Source: Alphaproteobacteria bacterium (GTDB taxonomy: Bacteria > Pseudomonadota > Alphaproteobacteria > CACIAM-22H2). From it: a DNA stretch of 64,000 nucleotides. Made by a program: the position numbers and the translations under genes. The stretch spans positions 18,514 to 82,513 of the forward strand of contig DASWFO010000062.1 in assembly GCA_036394195.1 (NCBI GenBank), written 5' to 3'. The notes under the pieces were generated by a model. It had not been told where the DNA came from. It ran no database searches and saw only the letters and a program-made list of their open reading frames with translations. This document shows, in pieces, positions 1 to 9,361 of the stretch (its first letter is position 1; every line of letters begins with the position of its first letter).

Positions 1-64
1 ACACCGTCGCCATCAGGACCAGCAAGACATTGCGGCCCGACCAGCTGATGATCGAAGCGATCAT
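1..64 (-). CDS. cusA: RND heavy-metal efflux pump CusA/CzcA-like; only the first ~21 codons are inside the window
   Basis: The reverse complement of nt 1-64 reads MIASIISWSGRNVLLVLMATV. This matches the CusA N-terminus (MIEWIIRRSVANRFLVLM...). Its ATG overlaps the cusB stop as ATGA. Confidence 0.55.
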   Translation of the reverse strand, partial: MIASIISWSGRNVLLVLMATV

Positions 65-1548
65 GGGCGACCTCCGGCCGCGGGTGCGGCCGTCTCATTG
101 GGGGCCGCGAAGGCATTCAGGGCCGCTCGAAGGTTGCTTTCGGCATCGATCAGGAAGTTCGCGCTGACCACGACCTTCTCGCCCGGCTCGAGGCCTGCCA
201 GCACCGCGTAATAACCGTCGCCGTGCGCGCCGAGCTTCACCTCGCGCGGCTCGAACCGGCCCTCGCCGCGGTCGATCAACACCGTCTGCCTGGTGCCGCT
301 GTTGAGCACCGCCGATTCCGGCACCGCGAGCACCGGACCGGCGCCAACCGCGGCGTCGATCACCACATTGGCATACATGCCGGGCTTCAGCCGCCCGTCG
401 GGGTTCGCGATGACGACCCGCACCTTGCCGGTGCGCGTGTCCTGCATCACGGTCGGGTAGATGAAATCGACCGTCGCCGGAAAGGTCGCGCCGGGATAGG
501 CATTGACCGCGACCTTGGCCACCTGCCCTTCGCCCACGGCACCCAAGTCCTGCTCGAACACCTCGGCCATCAGCCACACGGTCGAGAGGTCGGCGATGCG
601 ATATAGAGGATCGCCCGCGGTGAAGCGCATGCCCTCGACGGCCGTCTTTTCCATCACCACGCCGTCGGCCGGCGAACGCAAGGTCAGCGTGCGCGCGATC
701 ACGTTGTCGCGCTGCAGGCGCCGGACCTGATCGTCCGAAATGTCCCAGTTCCGCAGGCGCTGCAGCGATGCGTCCGCGAGCTGCTTGGCCGACGCGCGGA
801 TGTCCTGGCCGGCGCCGGCCATGTCCTGCAGCGCGCGCCAGGCCAGCGCGTATTCCTGCTGCGCCACCACCAGCTCGGGCGCGTAGATCTCCATCAGCGG
901 CTGGCCGCGGCGCACGGTCTGCCCGGTCGCGTTCACGTGCAGCTTCTCGATCCAGCCGTCGAATTTCGTGTTGACGATGTACAGGCGGCGTTCGTCGGCC
1001 TGCACCGTGCCGACCGCCCGGATGGCACGTGCCAGATCGCGCATTTCGGCCGGCTCGCTGCGCACGCCGAGCGTCTGAACGCGCTCGCGGCTGATCCTGA
1101 CAACCGGTCCGTCATCCCCGGCCTCATCTTCGTAGACCGGGATGTATTCCATCCCCATCGAGTCCTTCTTCGGCACCGGCGAGGTGTCGGGCTGACCCAT
1201 CGGGTTCCGGTAATAGAGGACCCGTCCCTTGCCCGCCTTGATCTCCCTTCCTTGAGATGGTTGCGCCGACGCTTGTGGCGGCGGCGATGCGGGCTCGTCT
1301 TGGTCCTCGTAGACCGGGATGTAGTCCATCCCCATCGAATCCTTCTTCGGCACCGGCGAGTAGTCCGGCTTCCCCATCGGGTCCTTGTAGTAGAGGACAG
1401 TCCGCGGCGTGGCCTGGTTCACGGTCGATGGTGCGGCCATCGACATTGGTGCCTGCCGGCCCACCCAGTAACCGGCGCCCACGCCGACGATCAGCGCAAC
1501 GGCGGAAATGATCGCGACCGCGATCGATCTGACTCCCTGACTTTTCAT
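61..1548 (-). CDS. cusB: RND efflux membrane-fusion (periplasmic adaptor) protein, CusB-like, carrying a tandemly duplicated N-terminal metal-binding motif
   Basis: The 495-aa ORF has an N-terminal TM/signal segment. It contains two copies of VLYY(K/R)(D/N)PMG.PD.SPVPKKDSMGM(D/E)YIPVYED, the CusB N-terminal Met-rich Cu/Ag site. The remainder has HlyD/biotin-lipoyl-like and beta-barrel adaptor signatures, and it sits directly upstream of cusA. Confidence 0.85.
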   Translation of the reverse strand: MKSQGVRSIAVAIISAVALIVGVGAGYWVGRQAPMSMAAPSTVNQATPRTVLYYKDPMGKPDYSPVPKKDSMGMDYIPVYEDQDEPASPPPQASAQPSQGREIKAGKGRVLYYRNPMGQPDTSPVPKKDSMGMEYIPVYEDEAGDDGPVVRISRERVQTLGVRSEPAEMRDLARAIRAVGTVQADERRLYIVNTKFDGWIEKLHVNATGQTVRRGQPLMEIYAPELVVAQQEYALAWRALQDMAGAGQDIRASAKQLADASLQRLRNWDISDDQVRRLQRDNVIARTLTLRSPADGVVMEKTAVEGMRFTAGDPLYRIADLSTVWLMAEVFEQDLGAVGEGQVAKVAVNAYPGATFPATVDFIYPTVMQDTRTGKVRVVIANPDGRLKPGMYANVVIDAAVGAGPVLAVPESAVLNSGTRQTVLIDRGEGRFEPREVKLGAHGDGYYAVLAGLEPGEKVVVSANFLIDAESNLRAALNAFAAPNETAAPAAGGRP

Positions 1549-1653
1549 GTTTGCGAACTCCGAATCTTTGTCATGCGTCCGTTCGATCGCGCGCGATTTC
1601 AGTTGCGGCGCGGGCGGCCGCGCGTTGCGGCCGCCCGCGCCGGAGGCTAGTGG

Positions 1654-2046
1654 TCAGTTTTTCTGAATCGGAACCATCGCAACCGCAGGGCCGGATTCGC
1701 CCGGCACGGCGGCCTCTAGCCGGAGACTCCGGACCGCCTCTCGGGTGACGAGCCGATAGTTGCCCTGGCCGTCAGGAGTGAGCGGTGTCCGGCGCTGGAC
1801 GATGAAGTCGGCCTTGGGATTGGGATGCTCCAGCGTGCGGTAAAAGACCTGCGCGTTGGAGATCGGCTGGCCGGACGGATCGATCAGCCGCACCGTGATG
1901 ACTGAGCTTGCGCCGGTTTTCACGGGCGGCCCGACGATCTCGAACCTGTAGTCCGACGGCGCGGCGCTGGCCGGCCCGACGACTCCACCAATCAAAAGCG
2001 TTGCCAATGCGGTAGCCCTCAGGAGGGCGAAACGAGTGCTGGTCAT
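1654..2046 (-). CDS. Exported ~130-aa protein, FixH/YtkA-like beta-sandwich; paralog of the protein at 4128..4547
   Basis: I placed the start at an internal ATG (MTSTRFALLRATALATLLIGG..), which has a signal peptide. The DYRFE(I/L)(V/A)GPP motif is shared with 4128..4547. It lies inside the cus operon. Confidence 0.55.
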   Translation of the reverse strand: MTSTRFALLRATALATLLIGGVVGPASAAPSDYRFEIVGPPVKTGASSVITVRLIDPSGQPISNAQVFYRTLEHPNPKADFIVQRRTPLTPDGQGNYRLVTREAVRSLRLEAAVPGESGPAVAMVPIQKN

Positions 2047-2273
2047 GTTGTATGTCCTTGCCTTGGGGATCGGCTTTGGCCGCCGCGAGCAAGCGTGCGG
2101 CGTTCCGATCCACAGATGTCTTGGGATCTTCTCGACCGAACCTGATTTTCGGCTGTGCTCGGGCACGGACCTCAAACGAAGCGCGTGGTCACGATGACCA
2201 TTTGCGCCCGCAGGCAGATCGATACCGTCAGCGAGCCGACGGATCAGGAGACGGGCCGCTAAGGCCCGTCGGA

Positions 2274-2621
2274 TCACGCGGCGAGGATAGGAGGCGCCAG
2301 TTCCGGCTTGGGCGTCCGTCCGGCCATGTCGACGCCGACCAATTGGTAGCGCAACGCCGGGGGATCGACTTGCGCCGTCTGGATCGCCGACGGAAGGCCA
2401 AGGAGCTCGATGCAGCCTACGCTGTTCATGCACTGCTCCGACATGGCTTTGCACGGCATCGGCATGCTGGGACTGCCATCGCCCTTGGTTCCCGACGACT
2501 CTGTCGGACAGCCGGCAGAGGCAACACAAGTGCAGCCCAGAAACGAAAAGGAAAAGGCTGGCGTCAATCCGCCGAGGGCGATGCCCATCGCCAGGAGAAA
2601 AGCCAGGAAGCGCTTGTGCAT
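2274..2621 (-). CDS. Small exported Cys/Met-rich protein, a putative periplasmic Cu-binding accessory protein; paralog of 4727..5074
   Basis: It has a signal peptide (MHKRFLAFLLAMGIALGG). The motifs MPMPC, CMNSVGC and LGLPSAIQTA align with IPMPGC, CIVMC and ALPATATPFA in the 4727..5074 protein. It is in the same orientation, lying between the TolC-family gene and the FixH-like gene. Confidence 0.45.
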   Translation of the reverse strand: MHKRFLAFLLAMGIALGGLTPAFSFSFLGCTCVASAGCPTESSGTKGDGSPSMPMPCKAMSEQCMNSVGCIELLGLPSAIQTAQVDPPALRYQLVGVDMAGRTPKPELAPPILAA

Positions 2622-2857
2622 CGGATTGTCCATGACGCTTCTTCGAGTTGGGAGCGGGTGAGGTGACTATCAATCCCGCCCCCTGTTGGACACAGTGTCG
2701 TGAACGGGGCTGTGTCGCGGTGCAATAAATGTATGGTCAGTCCGTTTGAGCGCTTCGTAGGTCGCCCCCGACCAAACGCTCGACATCGCGATCGGGTTTC
2801 CCCCGCTCGAACGTCGCGCGCCGCGGCGTCCCCTGAACTGCATGAATGTCTTGAATG

Positions 2858-4126
2858 TCACAGCCGGTCTCCGATCGTCTTCTCGATGTCGGCCAGCAGC
2901 ATCCGCTCTTCGGCCTGCACTTTCAGCAATTCGAGGCGGACCTCCTGGACGCGGTGGGCCGCTTCCAGCACGGAAGTGAGGTCGCCGCGGCCGAGCTGAT
3001 AGCTGCTCAATGCCGAGCGGTATGCCGCGTCGGTCTGCGGCTGCAGGGTGGTCGTGAGCAGCGCTTCCGTCGTCTTGGCCGCGTCCAAGCCGGCCAGCGC
3101 ATCTTCGAGGTCGCCCTGGAGCTGAAGCAGCGACGCGTCGAGCCGCGAGCGCGCTGCTCCGGCACGTGCCGTGGCCTCACGCGCCTGGGCTTCGCGGAGT
3201 CCCCATTGCAACGGCACCTTGAGGCCGACTCCCGCATAGAGGCGTGGCCCGATATCGGGCAGGCTGCTCTGGCCAAGCGTCACGGTGACGTCGGGATACC
3301 AGCTCTTGTCGACCAGCCGGCGACTGTCTTCCGCCGCCGCGATCTCGGATGTGGCTTCGGCCAGCATCGGATTGTTCCGCCGGGCGCGGTCGACGAGGTT
3401 CGCAATGCGCAGCGCTTCGGCGCCAGGGAGCGGCGGCAACGCAATCGGATCGGTGAGCGGCGAGCCCGGCGCCCTGGCGAGCAACGCGTTGATGCGACCT
3501 TGCGCCGTCCGCTTCTCACGCTCCAGATTCGCGAAGTCGAGGTCGACCCGGCTGCGTTCGACCGCACTGCGGATGGCATCGGCCTGCTGGCCGAGGCCCT
3601 GCCCGTAACGCCGCTGCGCCGTCTCCGCGACGGCATGCAGGAGGGCATGCGTGTCGTGGGTCACCTCGACCGCATGCGTCGCCCGCCAATATTGAGCGAA
3701 CACGGTCTTGACCCGCGCATCGAGCTCCACGGCCGCCGAGAGCTGGCGGCTGCGCGCCCCCAGCGCCTCGGCATTGGCGATGCTGCGCGCGAGGCCGCGC
3801 TTGCCCCAGAGCGGGAACGCCTGCGAGACGGTGGTCAGCGTCTGACGAAACCCCTCGTCCCGCGACAGGTTCAGCATCGGGTCTTCCAGCGCCCCCGCCG
3901 CCGAGGCTTTGGCTGTGGCCGCGTCCGAATCGAGTGCCCGGGCCGCCAGGGTCGGGTTGAGGCGGCGCGCCAAGGCGAGCAGCTCGTCGACCGTCGCGCC
4001 CGGCGGCGGGCCGGCTTCGGCCGCATGCGCCGGCAGGGCGCTCATTGGGGTGGCGGCCAGCGCCGCTGCGATGCCGACGGCGCGGCCGAACCGCAAGGCC
4101 GCCGCGGCAAGCCGATGGGCGCGCAT
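2858..4126 (-). CDS. cusC: TolC-family outer membrane efflux factor (CusC-like)
   Basis: The 422-aa ORF has a signal peptide and the two-fold repeated alpha-helical/beta-barrel OEP pattern typical of the TolC/OprM family. It lies in an operon with cusBA. Confidence 0.8.
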   Translation of the reverse strand: MRAHRLAAAALRFGRAVGIAAALAATPMSALPAHAAEAGPPPGATVDELLALARRLNPTLAARALDSDAATAKASAAGALEDPMLNLSRDEGFRQTLTTVSQAFPLWGKRGLARSIANAEALGARSRQLSAAVELDARVKTVFAQYWRATHAVEVTHDTHALLHAVAETAQRRYGQGLGQQADAIRSAVERSRVDLDFANLEREKRTAQGRINALLARAPGSPLTDPIALPPLPGAEALRIANLVDRARRNNPMLAEATSEIAAAEDSRRLVDKSWYPDVTVTLGQSSLPDIGPRLYAGVGLKVPLQWGLREAQAREATARAGAARSRLDASLLQLQGDLEDALAGLDAAKTTEALLTTTLQPQTDAAYRSALSSYQLGRGDLTSVLEAAHRVQEVRLELLKVQAEERMLLADIEKTIGDRL

Positions 4127-4127
4127 G

Positions 4128-4547
4128 TCACTTCGGGACCGGAACGGTGACGGTGCCGCGCACCGCCTGCGGCTCGCCTTGCACCCGCGCCGACAGGGTC
4201 AGCCCCCAATTGCCCGGCATCGAGGGCTGCGCCTCGAACCGATACACGCCGGGCTCGGTCGCGGGGAGCGCCTTCACGGACCCGCCCATCTCCGCCATGC
4301 CGTCCGGACCCATGTCGAATTTGCTCTGAACGATGACGGCCCCGGGAACGGGCTTGCCGTCCGGAACATGGACTAGGCGGACGTTCACGAGCGTCGCGTG
4401 CGCCAACTTGGCCGGCGGACCGGCGAGCTCGAAGCGGTAGTCCTGCGGGGCGGCCATCGCCGGCACAAAGGGCAGCGCCAGAAGTGCTGCGAGAACGGCG
4501 TAGCGGCACCGAGCGGCCGCGCTCCGGCCGCGAATAACAACGGACAT
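4128..4547 (-). CDS. Exported FixH/YtkA-like protein; second paralog
   Basis: The start is at MSVVIRGRSAAARCRYAVLAALLALPFVPAMAAP, which is a signal peptide. It shares the QDYRFELAGPP motif and overall ~35-40% identity with 1654..2046. Confidence 0.55.
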   Translation of the reverse strand: MSVVIRGRSAAARCRYAVLAALLALPFVPAMAAPQDYRFELAGPPAKLAHATLVNVRLVHVPDGKPVPGAVIVQSKFDMGPDGMAEMGGSVKALPATEPGVYRFEAQPSMPGNWGLTLSARVQGEPQAVRGTVTVPVPK

Positions 4548-4726
4548 GTCTCTTCTCCTGGATCGCGTTGACGGACTCGGAACGGCGCCGTACGAGCGGC
4601 ATCGTCCGAGCAGCCCCGCGGTGGTTCCGGCCATGCCGCTAAAAAGCGGCGCGGCCCGAACTTCGGCGGGCTTTAAGCGGAATTGCTCAGCTCAGCGCCC
4701 TGCCGCACGGCAAGGGGCTGTGCCGG

Positions 4727-5074
4727 TCAAACGCGCGATCGCGGAGGAGAAGGATCGGGAGAAACGGTGACGCCGGCCAGCGCCCGACTGGAGGTCCAGT
4801 AGCCAACATCGGCCCAGACGATCTCGGTGGCAAACGGCGTGGCCGTGGCGGGCAGAGCGCACATGACGATGCAGCTGAGGTCGCCGCTACAACCGGGCAT
4901 CGGTATCGTCTTCGACGATCCGTCAGAATGCCCGGCCATGTCCATGTCCGTGCCCATCATCATGGCGCAGGGCTGCGCCGCCGCAGCCCGCCCGGGGAAC
5001 AACGGCCCCAGCGCCGCCGCTACAAAGGCCAGCAACGTGAGGAGCGCCATGACGCGGGTCCGGAGGGACGCCAT
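4727..5074 (-). CDS. Small exported Met/Cys-rich protein (CAMMMGTDMDMAGH...); second copy of the putative Cu-binding accessory protein
   Basis: An internal ATG at 5074 gives a signal peptide (MASLRTRVMALLTLLAFVAAALG). The Met/Cys clusters are paralogous to 2274..2621. The longer ORF in the track is an unsupported upstream extension. Confidence 0.4.
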   Translation of the reverse strand: MASLRTRVMALLTLLAFVAAALGPLFPGRAAAAQPCAMMMGTDMDMAGHSDGSSKTIPMPGCSGDLSCIVMCALPATATPFATEIVWADVGYWTSSRALAGVTVSPDPSPPRSRV

Positions 5075-5169
5075 GAGCGGGAAGTTAAGCTCCTTCGGGC
5101 GATTTGGGAAGGTCCGGGGTACTCCCGCCCGCTCACGTCCATGTGACCCAGGCCATACCCAACAATGAT

Positions 5170-5640
5170 TCCCGTAACCCACGTCATGTCGCGAACATAC
5201 CCGGGAGCCGGAAAAACAGCCGCGCGGCTCGTCTCTGGTATCCGTCATGCCGGACTTGATCCGGCATCCATCGCGACGCTGCACATGCGCTGCGCCGCCG
5301 CGAAACGTCGGCGGGCGCGCAGAAGACTTGGGGACCCCGCATCTCGGCGTCGGGCAAAAGCCCGAGCGCCTGGTGCGGGGTGACGAGTGGGGTAGTGGCA
5401 GCGGTCGAGAGAACGTCACTCTGACCCTGATTTAACCACGTCATGTCGCGAACATGCCCGGGAGCGGGAAAAACAGCCGCGTGGCTCGTCTCTTATCCGT
5501 CATGCCGGACTTGATCCGGCATCCATCGCGACGCTGCACCATGGACCCCGCATCAAGTGCGGGGTGACGAGTGGGATAGCGGCAGCGGTCGAGAGAACAT
5601 GACTCTGACCCCGATTTAACCCGATTTAACGGGCATGACG
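5170..5640 (+). repeat. Two tandem copies of a ~200-270 bp REP/MITE-like element (family A)
   Basis: Both copies share a core of ccgtcatgccggacttgatccggcatccatcgcgacgctgca ... ggggtgacgagtgggRtagYggcagcggtcgagagaac. The first copy carries an ~85-bp internal hairpin insertion. A third copy is at 8975..9230. Confidence 0.8.
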
Positions 5641-5686
5641 ATATAGAGAGCGGTTCGACCTAATCGGAATCCGCTAAGACGCGTGG

Positions 5687-6238
5687 CTATTGATGGCGGT
5701 GATCGTGGCCGCCCGCCGAGGCACCATCGGCATACCCGCGCAGCGCGTCGTAGCGGGCGATCTGGTCGGCGGTCAGCACGTCGCGCGTTTCCAGATGCGC
5801 GGCGAGGTGGACGGCGCGCAGCCGGCCCTGGATCTCGGCGATCGCGGCGGTCGCGGCCGCGAGCCGATCGCGCGTGATCCGGCCGGTGGCGAAGTCCTGG
5901 TCGAGCGCTTGCTCCCGCTCCACAAGCTCGGCGCCGAGCGGCTTCGCGGCAGCGCTCATGCGCGCGAAGCTGGCCTGGATCGCGCCGAGCTGGTCTGCCG
6001 TGAGCGCGAGGTGGTCGCGGAGCTCCAGCGCGTGTGCCGGGCCGGGGTAGTGGTTGAGCTCGCCCGCCCGCGCCATGCCGAGGCCGCGCCCGGCCAGGAG
6101 ATCGGCAACCTCGTCGTCGGACAGCGTCTTGATGGCGCGGTCCTGCTGGCCGGCATACGGCGACGCGGCATCGGCCGGGCGTGACAGCTGACCGGCCAAC
6201 AGGACGGCCAGTGCGAGAAAGACCACCCGAAGAGTCAT
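5687..6238 (-). CDS. Periplasmic LTXXQ-motif protein (Spy/CpxP/ZraP family) with a His-rich C-terminus
   Basis: It has a signal peptide (MTLRVVFLALAVLLAGQLSRPADA) and two LTADQ motifs. The C-terminal tail is GGHDHRHQ. A strong SD (AAGGAGG) lies 7 nt upstream of ATG 6238, and the copA stop overlaps that RBS region. Confidence 0.7.
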   Translation of the reverse strand: MTLRVVFLALAVLLAGQLSRPADAASPYAGQQDRAIKTLSDDEVADLLAGRGLGMARAGELNHYPGPAHALELRDHLALTADQLGAIQASFARMSAAAKPLGAELVEREQALDQDFATGRITRDRLAAATAAIAEIQGRLRAVHLAAHLETRDVLTADQIARYDALRGYADGASAGGHDHRHQ

Positions 6239-6249
6239 CGATTCCTCCT

Positions 6250-8607
6250 TCACAGCGAAACCCGGCGGAGCCGGAGCGCGTTGGTGATGACGCTGACCGA
6301 GCTCAGCGACATCGCCGCGGCGGCGAAGACCGGGCTCAGCAGCAGGCCGAAGACCGGATACAGCACGCCGGCCGCGATCGGCACGCCGGCGGCATTGTAG
6401 ACGAAGGCGAAGAACAGGTTCTGCCGGATGTTGCGCATGGTCGCCGCCGAGAGCCGGCGCGCCCGGACGATGCCGGTGAGGTCGCCCTTGACCAGCGTGA
6501 CGCCGGCGCTCTCGATGGCGACGTCGGTGCCCGTCCCCATGGCGATGCCGACATCGGCGGCCGCCAGCGCCGGCGCGTCGTTCACGCCGTCGCCGGCCAT
6601 GGCCACCACCCGGCCCTGCTCGCGCAGCCTGAGCACGACTTTGGCCTTGTCCTCGGGCAGGACGTCCGCGGCGACGTCGTCGAGGCCGAGCTTGCGGGCC
6701 ACGGCCTCCGCCGTGGTTCGGTTGTCGCCGGTGAGCATGACGATCCGCACCCCCTCGGCCTTCAGCGCCCGCACCGCCTCCGGTGACGTCGCCTTGATCG
6801 GATCGGCGATGGCGATGACGCCTGCCGCCTCGCCCCCCACGGCCATGAAGATGACCGTAGCGCCGTCGCGGCGCAGCTCGTCCGCGCGCGCCTCGAGGCC
6901 GCGTGCATCCAGCCTAAGCTCCGCGAAGAGCTTCAGATTGCCGAGCGCCACACGCTGTCCGTCGACGGTTCCGACGACGCCCTTGCCGGTCGGCGAGTCG
7001 AAATCCCGCGTCTCGGCCAGAGCCAGGCCGCGCTCGCGCGCCGCGGCGACGACGGCGGCGGCGAGCGGATGCTCGCTGCCGCGCTCGAGGCTGGCGGCCA
7101 GACGCAGCAGCTCCCGCTCGTCGAAGCGTCCGGCGGGCACCACGGCGACGACCCTGGGCTTGCCCTCGGTCAAGGTCCCGGTCTTGTCGACCACCAGCGT
7201 GTCGACGCTCTCGAAGCGCTCCAGCGCCTGCGCGTTCTTGATCAGCACGCCGGCCGCCGCACCCCGACCCATCCCGACCATGATCGACATCGGCGTGGCG
7301 AGGCCAAGCGCACACGGACAGGCGATGATCAGCACCGCGACCGCCGCGACCAGCCCATACCCATACGCCGGCGGCGGGCCCCAGATCGCCCAGCCGACGA
7401 AGGCGAGGACGGCGATCGCGATCACCGCCGGCACGAAATACGCCGCCACCTTGTCCGCCAGGCGCTGGATGGGTGCCCGGCTGCGCTGCGCTTCGGCGAC
7501 CAGGCGGACGATCCGCGCCAGCATGGTGTCCGTGCCGACTTTCTCGGCGCGCATCACGAAACTGCCGGTCTGATTCAGCGTCCCGCCAATGACCTTCGCA
7601 CCCGGCTCCTTCATCACCGGCATCGATTCGCCGGTGACCATCGACTCATCGACGGCGCTGCGGCCCTCGATCACCTGGCCGTCGACCGGCACTTTCTCGC
7701 CGGGACGAACGCGCAGCCGATCGCCGACCCCGACCGCGTCGAGAGAAATCTCCTCGTCCTGTCCGGCGCCCGTCACCCGGCGCGCGATCTTCGGCGCCAG
7801 ATCGAGCAGCGCCCGGATGGCACCGCCGGTGGCTTCGCGGGCGCGCAGCTCCAGAACCTGCCCGACCAGGACAAGCACGGTGATCACCGACGCCGCCTCG
7901 AAATACACCGGCGTCTCGCCGTGTGGCCCGCGGAAGGCCGGCGGGAACAAATCGGGGGCCAGCGTCGCCACGACGCTGTAGAGCCAGGCGACGCCCGTTC
8001 CCATCGCGATCAGGGTGAACATGTTGAGGTTGCGCGACACCAGGGACGCCCAGCCGCGGACGAAAAATGGCCAGCCCGCCCACAGCACGACCGGCGTTGC
8101 GAGCACCAGCTGCAGCCAGTCGGACAGCGCCGGCGCGATCAGACGGTGGAGATCGAACAGGTGGCCGCCCATCTCGAGCCCCACCACCGGCACGCTCAGC
8201 CCGAGGCCGACCCAGAGCCGGCGCCGCATGTCGACGAGTTCGGGATTGGGCCCGGTCTCGGCGGTCACGTCGGCGGGCTCCAGCGCCATGCCGCAGATCG
8301 GACATGAGCCGGGACCGACCTGACGTATCTCGGGGTGCATCGGACAGGTGTAAATCGTGCCCGCTGGTGCCGCGGGAGCGACGGGTGCGGGGCTGACGTA
8401 ACGCTGCGGATAGGCTTCGAACTTCTCGCGGCAGCGCGGGTTACAGAAGAAATAGGTGACACCGCCATGCGAGGCCTTGTGCTTGGCGGTGGCGGGATTC
8501 ACGGTCATCCCGCAGACCGGATCCTTCGCCAAGGCCGGCGCCGGTTCATGCGCGTGATGGGCGCCATGGCCGCAATTGTGATCGTGACTGTGAAGGTGGT
8601 CCGACAT
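6250..8607 (-). CDS. copA: Copper-translocating P1B-type ATPase
   Basis: The conserved DKTGT, CPC (TM6), TGDN and GDGVNDAP motifs are present. The N-terminus is His-rich, followed by a YHS/TRASH-like CGMTV...C..C domain and a YTCPMHPEI...CPICGM domain. I placed the start at the internal ATG ([10 protein letters not shown]); the upstream extension overlaps csoR on the opposite strand. Confidence 0.9.
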
Positions 8608-8974: not shown

Positions 8975-9230
8975 AAGAGAAGAGAGCCGCGCGGCTCGTC
9001 TCTTATCCGTCATGCCGGACTCGATCCGGCATCCCCAAATCTTCTACGCGCCCGCCGGCGCCCAATCTCCTGCAGGAGGCGAAGCCCCCTGCGACCCCGG
9101 GCGGCGGCGCAGCGCAAGGCGACGCTGCACCATGGACCCCGCATCTCGGCGTCGGGCAAAGCCCGAGCGCCTGGTGCGGGGTGACGAGTAGGATAGTGGC
9201 AGCGGTCGCGAGAAAGTGATGCCCCGATTT
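8975..9230 (+). repeat. Third copy of REP/MITE-like family A, same orientation as the copies at 5170..5640
   Basis: It shares gctcgtctcttatccgtcatgccggacYYgatccggcatcc and ...cgcatctcggcgtcgggcaaagcccgagcgcctggtgcggggtgacgagtaggatagtggcagcggtcg with the 5170..5640 copies. Confidence 0.8.
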
Positions 9231-9361
9231 TGACGCATTACTGCGGCGCAGCAGCGCCGTGATTTGCGACAAATGCCTAATGTTTCCGCGCGCCGCGCGC
9301 GGATGTAACGTAGCGCTCAGGTCGAGTCGTTGAAGACGACCGCAACATCGGAGCGAACATC

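Follow-up and report, generated by a model that had tools for sequence, protein, structure and literature searches.

Two probable CutF-like leader ORFs and two YtkA-like proteins in a cusCBA-type efflux operon of an uncultured alphaproteobacterium

The 64-kb stretch of DNA analysed here (the window), whose source record is the metagenome-assembled genome of an uncultured alphaproteobacterium, contains a cus-type efflux operon in which a cassette of two small genes occurs twice. All features of the operon lie on the minus strand, and their order is small2, ytkA2, a TolC-family gene (cusC), small1, ytkA1, cusB and cusA. Small2 (4727..5074) is a putatively exported open reading frame (ORF) of 115 amino acids (aa) with the appearance of a CutF-like (DUF2946-like) leader. 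It is separated by a structured spacer of 179 nt (4548..4726) from ytkA2 (4128..4547), which encodes an exported CrdA-like/YtkA-like beta-sandwich protein. The TolC-family outer-membrane factor (OMF), cusC-like and not a lipoprotein (2858..4126; PF02321, E 4.5e-31), begins with an ATG 1 nt past the ytkA2 stop codon, so that ytkA2 and cusC are probably translationally coupled. A gap of 224-236 nt, according to the small1 start used, separates cusC from small1 (2274..2633 or 2621), a second CutF-like leader ORF of 119 aa from 2633 or 115 aa from 2621. The former (MDNPMHKRF) is the likelier start, being kept in the close relatives L011 and L013 and being also the choice of NCBI. Small1 is followed by a structured spacer of 227 nt (2047..2273), by ytkA1 (1654..2046), which encodes an exported YtkA-like beta-sandwich paralog designated type B, and by a spacer of 105 nt (between 1654 and 1548) that houses a perfect 16-bp hairpin. 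The two structured spacers fold more stably than shuffled sequences, with fold z-scores of -4.8 (small2–ytkA2) and -3.2 (small1–ytkA1), and strong hairpins stand directly past the stop codons of small1 and small2.

The remaining genes encode a CusB-type membrane fusion protein (MFP; 61..1548, HlyD_D23 E 5.6e-81) and the start of a cusA-type resistance-nodulation-division (RND) gene (1..63), whose ATG overlaps the cusB stop codon (ATGA). Against the NCBIfam CusB model, cusB reaches E 5.6e-60, which is under the curated cut-off of that model. An OMF, a CusB-type adaptor and an RND pump are found in one operon, as expected for a CusCBA-type system, and complete RND genes follow in relatives. All five ORFs lie where the original prediction, made from the sequence alone, had placed them, with cusA represented by its first 21 codons only, and the occurrence of a two-gene cassette twice in a cus-type operon was borne out by gene calls and family profiles. 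Both small ORFs are recorded at NCBI as hypothetical proteins (VGB82_05300 and VGB82_05315), and an NCBIfam search of the four accessory proteins (both small, both YtkA-like) gave no match. A Pfam search gave no CusF match, in agreement with the statement that no canonical CusF is present. No sensor two-component genes adjoining the operon were found in the window (the side beyond cusA falls outside it), and no sensor kinase was found nearby in the window or in the related loci L001, L005, L007 and L008. The window locus agrees in this with the cus operon of Cupriavidus metallidurans, which has no sensor kinase and of which only cusD is expressed without metal (PMC10304878). Scans of positions 1500-5700 for sigma-70 promoters and for intrinsic terminators found nothing.

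The small Cys/Met proteins belong to one family. A family profile matches small1 (E 2e-24) and small2 (E 5e-35) and no other ORF of the window. An exhaustive search of 1.8 billion representatives, made with a profile built from a few close homologs of small1 and small2, yielded 248 clusters with E<=1e-3, of which 40 have E<=1e-10; almost all are 100-125 aa long. Word-indexed homology searches returned 2 relatives for small1 and 8 for small2. In pairwise alignment the two proteins share 23% identity (E 3e-4). One Cys (C68) and three Pro (P106, P110, P111) are invariant in an alignment of 81 members, and a second Cys (C62), a Trp, a Tyr and a Gly are near-invariant, with the consensus PC..C..GC. 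The N-terminus of small2 resembles a signal peptide; the protein also has a stretch rich in Met, the pair C62-x5-C68 and, at residues 110-111 (of 115), PP, and its last residues are ...SPDPSPPRSRV. Six Cys are present in small1, some of them in the pattern MPC-x6-C-x5-C, and its C-terminus reads ...KPELAPPILAA. The motif MPMPC, which had been thought common to both, is present in small1 alone, small2 having IPMPGC. By eye, both signal peptides show a basic n-region, a hydrophobic core of 15-20 residues and a c-region of small residues (small2 AAA/AQ; small1 AFS/FS). A PDB sequence search with the family profile returned nothing.

CutF-like proteins are defined operationally (Ozturk et al. 2023) as proteins of fewer than 150 aa with a signal peptide, a PP among the final 15 residues and, no more than 1000 nt away, a gene downstream. 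Small2 and small1 are short enough at either start of the latter, both have PP within their last 15 residues, both carry a Cys motif in the exported part (the invariant C68 and near-invariant C62), and their downstream neighbours, the ytkA genes of the cus operon, lie 179 nt and 227 nt away. CutF and CruR are small exported upstream ORFs whose nascent chains sense copper through a Cys motif and whose C-terminal proline arrest motif controls the next gene (PMC9973294, PMC9426467). The downstream control differs: CutF melts a stem-loop masking the Shine-Dalgarno sequence (SD; PMC9973294), whereas CruR uses Rho (PMC9426467). The commonest downstream neighbour of CutF-like ORFs is an OMF gene (PF02321), and CusD and SilD fall in the same network (PMC9973294). 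Judged by sequence features, the small Cys/Met proteins appear to fit leader peptides of the CutF/CruR type better than the periplasmic Cu(I)/Ag(I) chaperones proposed in the original prediction, and their stall-site codons are complementary to the ribosome-binding site ahead of the gene that follows. Most likely, each copy of the cassette encodes first a leader peptide that senses copper and controls translation of the gene behind it, and then a beta-sandwich protein of the periplasm.

The complementarity is most evident in the upstream cassette. The last codons of small2 (UCU CCU CCG CGA UCG CGC GUU UGA) are complementary to GUCAACGCGAUCCAGGAGA, which holds the ytkA2 SD (AGGAGA, 4554-4559) within the 3' end of the spacer (4548-4573). 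The 5' arm of this predicted long-range helix (4725..4755) consists of the codons D-P-S-P-P-R-S-R-V-stop, the would-be footprint of a PP-stalled ribosome. The duplex is predicted at -28.5 kcal/mol, and the probability that the SD pairs with the stall footprint of about 27 nt is 0.88 in the folding ensemble. Blocking the stall footprint raises predicted SD accessibility from 0.12 to 0.44, and a control footprint leaves it at 0.12. In the internal cassette, pairing between the small1 tail (2271-2288) and the ytkA1 SD (AAGGA, 2055-2059) is predicted weakly, and this SD is predicted to be about half open whatever the footprint; in L011 and L013 the pairing probability of small1-type tails rises to 0.44-0.47, and the inner hairpin of the small1–ytkA1 spacer shows one compensatory change. 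As modelled, the upstream cassette pairs strongly and the internal cassette weakly.

The same pairing was followed across the family, in which PP-region codons and downstream ytkA SD regions lie 90-230 nt apart. For 62 distinct loci the cognate tail/SD duplexes average -16.2 kcal/mol, as compared with -13.96 +/- 0.35 for permuted pairs, and none of 20000 permutations reaches the observed mean. The mean probability of SD-footprint pairing is 0.40 for native sequences and 0.165 for chimeras with foreign tails (p 8e-9). Complementary pairs are clade-specific: CCCAUC/GAUGGG, CCUAUC/GAUAGG, CCCUUC/GAAGGG and CUCUUCC/GGAAGAG. An ungapped alignment of tails and SDs over all clades is not in one register and was not used for pair counts; a full-spacer alignment of 12 loci was used instead, from which RNAalifold predicts de novo a helix that joins the PP-I-R codons to the SD. 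In this helix, whose structure was derived from the same sequences on which it was tested, 87.5% of cells are paired; sliding the partner lowers this to 36-53%. The covariation score, 0.246 as compared with 0.161, was attained in none of 500 shuffles. An SD-masking structure that a stalled ribosome could open is predicted for small2 and for the family overall, and weakly for small1. An Rfam search of the spacers gave no matching family.

The two YtkA-like proteins had been described as FixH/YtkA-like, and the second name is the one that holds. Both exceed the gathering cut-off of PF13115 (25.9 bits), YtkA2 at 56.8 bits (E 3.7e-15) and YtkA1 barely, at 26.9 bits (E 8e-6). The FixH assignment (PF05751) was rejected, since YtkA2 scores below significance (13.1 bits, E 0.1, over its last 37 residues only, against a cut-off of 23) and YtkA1 gives no match. 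The motif DYRFE(L/I)xGPP said to be shared by both lies within their pairwise alignment (32% identity over 102 residues, E 3e-13). YtkA-like proteins of these operons were divided into two types. Type A consists of YtkA2 and 69 distinct sequences from other loci and is characterized by a Met-rich loop (DMGPDGMAEM in YtkA2) and by Met79/84/87/110 and Trp114; in 51 sequences Met79 and Met87 are invariant, and Met84, Met110 and Trp114 near-invariant. Type B is rare, comprising YtkA1, L007 5050-5457, and members in L011, L012 and P0012-17, and is without any type A ligand. Leaders of the small1 type (CMNSVGC...KPELxPPI) accompany type B, and those of the small2 type accompany type A.

Structure models of both proteins are seven- to eight-strand immunoglobulin (Ig)-like sandwiches. 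The AlphaFold2 model of YtkA2 is a seven-strand sandwich with a predicted local distance difference test score (pLDDT) of 80.6 (about 90 in the domain), its Met loop being less confident; that of YtkA1 has the same fold (pLDDT 82.2), with CrdA ranked 14th among its structural matches. The closest solved relative of YtkA2, by structural and profile match, is Helicobacter pylori CrdA, with which it shares fold and Met loop; YtkA1 has no Met or Trp at these positions. In the PDB search YtkA2 alone returned nothing and a mixed YtkA profile gave CrdA at a marginal E 0.13, the match requiring a profile of type A only. CrdA, a secreted protein that is rich in Met and binds copper, is encoded immediately ahead of crdB (OMF), czcB and czcA (PMC9182242). 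As CrdA occupies the same operon position, and as YtkA/CtaK and the YcnJ domain handle copper in Bacillus subtilis, YtkA2 is by analogy probably a periplasmic Cu(I)/Ag(I) chaperone that hands metal to the pump, the job of CusF in Escherichia coli. The proposal that both YtkA-like proteins are chaperones replacing or augmenting CusF is supported by analogy for YtkA2, with its Met/Trp set and likeness to CrdA, and not for YtkA1, which is without every CrdA-type ligand and which, from its model, appears to be a ligand-less paralog keeping the YtkA fold.

The module had been called tandemly duplicated, but its copies are interleaved with cusC and the duplication is ancient. Small2 shares 70% and 52% identity with relatives elsewhere and 23% with small1; YtkA2 shares 55-82% with relatives elsewhere and 32% with YtkA1; and YtkA1 itself has relatives elsewhere at 82%, 54% and 45%. 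A recent tandem duplication was therefore rejected, as all four proteins have closer relatives in other genomes than in their own operon.

The spread of the layout was examined in a species-level scan, one genome per species, which found 79 loci, mostly in Acetobacteraceae, other Rhodospirillales, Methylobacterium, Stellaceae and Reyranellaceae; 78 of them could be placed by hidden Markov model (HMM)/phmmer annotation. The order CutF-like - YtkA - OMF - MFP - RND is found at 33 loci and, truncated or with an extra element, at about a dozen more, so that the single-cassette operon occurs in about 45 of 78 representative genomes; the same order is found in metagenome contigs. Other arrangements are YtkA - MFP - RND (9 loci), CutF-like - YtkA - MFP - RND (3), YtkA ... 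CutF-like - MFP - RND (2) and two YtkA genes before the OMF (a few). A cassette between OMF and MFP is found at none of the 78, in keeping with the earlier suggestion that such a duplicated module had gone undescribed as a unit. It recurs only in relatives about 80% identical, L011 (OMF end - small1 - ytkA1 - cusB) and L013. A metagenome scan with YtkA1 added one distant locus and nothing else. From these counts the window operon resembles a fusion, in which a leader - YtkA - MFP - RND unit as in L040 follows on the common operon's head (leader - type A - OMF). Two cassettes stand back to back on the short contig L012 (1-1520), as CutF-like - type B YtkA - CutF-like (907-1278) - start of another exported protein, and L007 has one leader followed by a type B and then a type A YtkA.

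Further variants were observed in the scan. In Enhydrobacter aerosaccus (L090 6902-9824), as also in L091, the order is YtkA-like gene, CusF-like gene (7451-7771), CutF-like leader (8125-8472), cusB and cusA; a leader may thus stand right in front of cusB, and YtkA and CusF can coexist. L038 (7668-8662), L043 and L053 possess an extra CutF-like leader just past cusA, followed in L038 by an uncharacterised exported ORF of 126 aa. In L031, L032, L042, L057 and L076 a tandem pair of YtkA-like genes lies between leader and OMF, and the first copy of the pair has an extra insert in L032, L042 and L076 (GGIGKMHQADSES). The copper island of the cus operon in L001 (1825-3764) contains a weak CutF-like ORF (E 2e-5) before a multicopper oxidase gene, the classical cutF-cutO arrangement, with DUF411/CopG, Sco1 and DsbD-like genes near the oxidase.

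The operon is interpreted here as a cusCBA-type Cu(I)/Ag(I) efflux operon gated post-transcriptionally by two exported leaders of the CutF/CruR kind, without an adjacent two-component sensor, a reading to which a probability of about 0.6 is attached. Copper sensing, stalling and metal transfer are what the family memberships, synteny, RNA complementarity and covariation, and structural similarity observed above suggest. Each small ORF would be translated and co-translationally exported, the periplasmic Cys/Met motif of the emerging leader would bind copper, and the bound copper would prolong the ribosome pause at the C-terminal PP. Because the codons under the paused ribosome are the anti-SD partner of the next ribosome-binding site, pausing would free that SD across the structured spacer of 180-230 nt and switch translation on. 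Through small2, the upstream cassette would govern ytkA2 and, by way of the 1-nt stop/start junction, the OMF, with YtkA2 probably delivering Cu(I)/Ag(I) to the pump. The internal cassette would act through small1 on ytkA1 and perhaps on cusBA, so that the two pump halves would be controlled separately.

Several points weigh against this interpretation. The small1 tail and ytkA1 SD pair with P 0.12 and a duplex of -14.3 kcal/mol, ranked 56 of 62. The permutation and chimera p-values are generous, as the loci are related and kinship is ignored; part of the complementarity comes free, since Pro codons (CCN CCN) are anti-SD-like by composition; and ytkA start codons in the other loci were called heuristically. 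Spacers of 90-230 nt exceed the <100 nt deemed typical for stem-loop melting by the CutF authors (PMC9973294). The proline motif is PP here, PPP in CutF and RAPP in CruR. Small2 reaches only E 0.069 and 14.3 bits against DUF2946 (PF11162; gathering cut-off 23.7), small1 gives no match, and the model matches 2 of 81 family members, with a best E of 0.0016. As the threshold is not reached, the small ORFs are classed as CutF-like on account of their architecture, without being counted as members of DUF2946; they are either a separate family sharing the DUF2946 architecture or a very distant relative. No role can be assigned to YtkA1. Finally, a like protein, CusD of C. metallidurans, has been interpreted as a lipoprotein that sequesters Cu(I) (PMC10304878).

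This interpretation of CusD, which is placed among the CutF-like proteins, also favours a different view of the small Cys/Met proteins, namely that they are stable mature Cu(I)/Ag(I) binders, periplasmic or membrane-attached, passing metal to the YtkA-like proteins and the pump, with the cassette as a chaperone pair. Conserved Cys and Met-rich stretches in the exported part are consistent with it, and a dual role would be compatible with the results. It is nevertheless an unlikely account, as it does not explain the best-conserved features, the C-terminal P..PP and its complementarity to the next SD; the sequence beyond the motifs is poorly conserved (mean column identity 26%); and the studied relative, CutF of Rhodobacter capsulatus, acts only in cis and is rapidly degraded after export (Ozturk et al., PMC9973294; bioRxiv 10.1101/2025.02.05.636593). 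Somewhat less probable still is that the small ORFs are regulatory leaders acting through Rho-dependent termination or attenuation in the long spacers, or through mRNA stability, with tail/SD pairing secondary. The spacer lengths resemble that of CruR, which works through Rho with a spacer of 162 nt (PMC9426467), and the half-open SD of the small1 cassette and the hairpins directly after both leader stop codons would suit such control. The spacers, however, are highly structured and GC-rich and so would be poor Rho-loading sites, the terminator scan gave no intrinsic terminator-like site, and cognate-specific complementarity and covariation point to SD masking. That the small ORFs are chance or shadow ORFs in high-GC sequence, which is rich in spurious ORFs, with the apparent doubling of the cassette due to YtkA paralogs alone, is most improbable and was discarded: neither has a Pfam match above threshold, but the family numbers 248 homologous clusters that are uniform in length and share invariant motifs, close relatives of small1 (L011/L013) differ by in-frame 6-nt indels, both ORFs are annotated by NCBI, and their place upstream of ytkA is conserved in dozens of genomes.

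Leader gating thus remains the preferred reading, and a bolder form of it may be put forward tentatively, as decidedly less probable than the reading itself. Two nascent-peptide copper sensors in series would run the pump without a sensor kinase, with the proline stall codons serving as anti-SD over roughly 200 nt. The channel with its Cu(I) chaperone and the pump with its ligand-less YtkA would be switched separately, the differing Cys/Met motifs of the leaders could set metal thresholds or specificities, and the Met-less YtkA1 might serve the adaptor or pump in a new capacity, other than that of a chaperone.

To our knowledge, copper sensing by leader peptides has been shown experimentally in two systems only, CutF and CruR. 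The parts of the cassette are of known kinds, and what is rare is only that they are doubled and split; earlier work has described both CutF-like ORFs ahead of cusC and, separately, CrdA ahead of crdB-czcBA. What seem to be new are the combination of a leader and a CrdA-like gene in a widespread five-gene alphaproteobacterial operon, the long-range pairing between stall codons and SD with clade-specific compensation, and the placement of a Met-less type B paralog with its own leader between cusC and cusB in this lineage only. Many alphaproteobacterial cus operons offer a testable sequence-level design in which stall codons serve as anti-SD and change in a compensatory, clade-specific manner. 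If true, this design would mean that leader-peptide control also reaches RND efflux pumps and works over long spacers, something the CutF authors considered unlikely. Through the link between the YtkA Pfam family and the solved CrdA structure, a widespread 'hypothetical' gene before cusC acquires a probable function. The doubled, split cassette amounts to a natural experiment in controlling the translation of pump parts separately, and it adds a ligand-less paralog. Current understanding is not overturned, and annotation is refined.

Other elements were noted in and around the operon. The ytkA1–cusB spacer contains a perfect GC-rich inverted repeat of 16 bp with a 5-nt loop and no U-tract (1606..1642), kept in L011 through G.U-compatible changes, which could be an element of mRNA processing, stability or partial termination. 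An inverted repeat, GACACAG-N14-CTGTGTC, in the cusC-small1 gap (2689-2716) is partly conserved in L011 and could be an operator. The N-terminus of CusB bears two tandem Met-rich motifs of about 34 residues (residues ~52-82 and ~101-131), YY(K/R)(D/N)PMG(K/Q)PD(Y/T)SPVPKKDSMGM(D/E)YIPVYED, presumably a duplicated metal-receiving segment. Upstream of the operon are found three copies of a repeat of about 250 nt, an LTXXQ/Spy-like exported protein, copA and a divergent csoR. The repeat copies (5179-5437, 5436-5621 and 8980-9238) are 63-95% identical over sub-segments, each with a short internal hairpin (CCGGACTTGATCCGG); they resemble repetitive extragenic palindromic (REP) elements or miniature inverted-repeat transposable elements (MITE) and lie just upstream of the cus operon head and beside the csoR/copA pair. 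The exported LTXXQ/Spy/CpxP-like protein (5687-6253, minus strand; PF07813 E 7e-5, just under the cut-off) has a His-rich C-terminus (GGHDHRHQ) and is encoded between copA and the cus operon head.

The proteins of the cassette may be compared with several known systems. CusF of the E. coli cusCFBA operon resembles YtkA2 in the role proposed for it, being a periplasmic Cu(I)/Ag(I) carrier in a pump operon with a Met ligand set and a Trp; it is a small oligonucleotide/oligosaccharide-binding (OB)-type barrel with a His/Met/Met/Trp site, whereas YtkA2 is an Ig-like sandwich and not a family member, so that the analogy is functional only. CrdA of the H. pylori crdAB-czcBA operon (PDB 9LL2/9LL4; PMC9182242), like YtkA2, is a secreted beta-sandwich of ~110 residues with a flexible Met-rich Cu(I)/Ag(I) loop, and the two share about 16% identity over the structural alignment and 33% over a 55-residue stretch. 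CrdA is governed by the two-component system CrdRS and has no leader ORF, and YtkA1 differs from it in having no Met loop. CtaK (YtkA) and the YtkA domain of YcnJ in B. subtilis (PMC13344008) are likewise PF13115 members, extracytoplasmic and implicated in copper handling, but they serve CuA assembly and copper acquisition, not efflux, and CtaK is a membrane-anchored lipoprotein.

Among systems comparable to the leaders, CusD/SilD and CzcI of C. metallidurans are small exported Cys/His/Met-rich ORFs heading cus, sil and czc RND operons, with no sensor kinase beside cus; CusD differs by its description as a twin-arginine translocation (TAT) lipoprotein sequestering Cu(I), and CzcI has no proline motif. 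SecM-secA and MifM-yidC2 monitor secretion activity, not metal, and their helices are local, but in both an exported leader ORF is involved, and a ribosome that stalls at its 3' end prevents the 5' arm of a helix masking the SD from pairing. CruR (Bp2923) of Bordetella pertussis (Roy et al., mBio 2022, PMC9426467) is a DUF2946-type upstream ORF heading a copper operon, a nascent-chain copper sensor with a C-terminal arrest motif and a long spacer. It turns an importer off through Rho-dependent termination and its signal peptide is dispensable, whereas the present operon requires that an exporter be turned on and has spacers that seem too structured to load Rho. CutF of R. capsulatus cutFOG (PMC9973294; bioRxiv 10.1101/2025.02.05.636593) has PPP and CxxxC in place of PP and C-x5-C or PC..C..GC, and its target is a multicopper oxidase instead of a YtkA/CrdA-like gene and cusC. 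Its stem-loop is local and intergenic, whereas a spacer of 180-230 nt, a predicted anti-SD within the leader stall codons and a long-range helix are found here, together with two leaders in one operon that do not reach the Pfam DUF2946 model. CutF itself is a small ORF, exported by means of a Sec signal peptide, that carries a copper-binding Cys motif and, at its C-terminus, a proline stall motif, and it immediately precedes a copper-defence gene with an SD hidden in RNA structure; the two leaders resemble it in this layout, their signal peptides as judged by eye.

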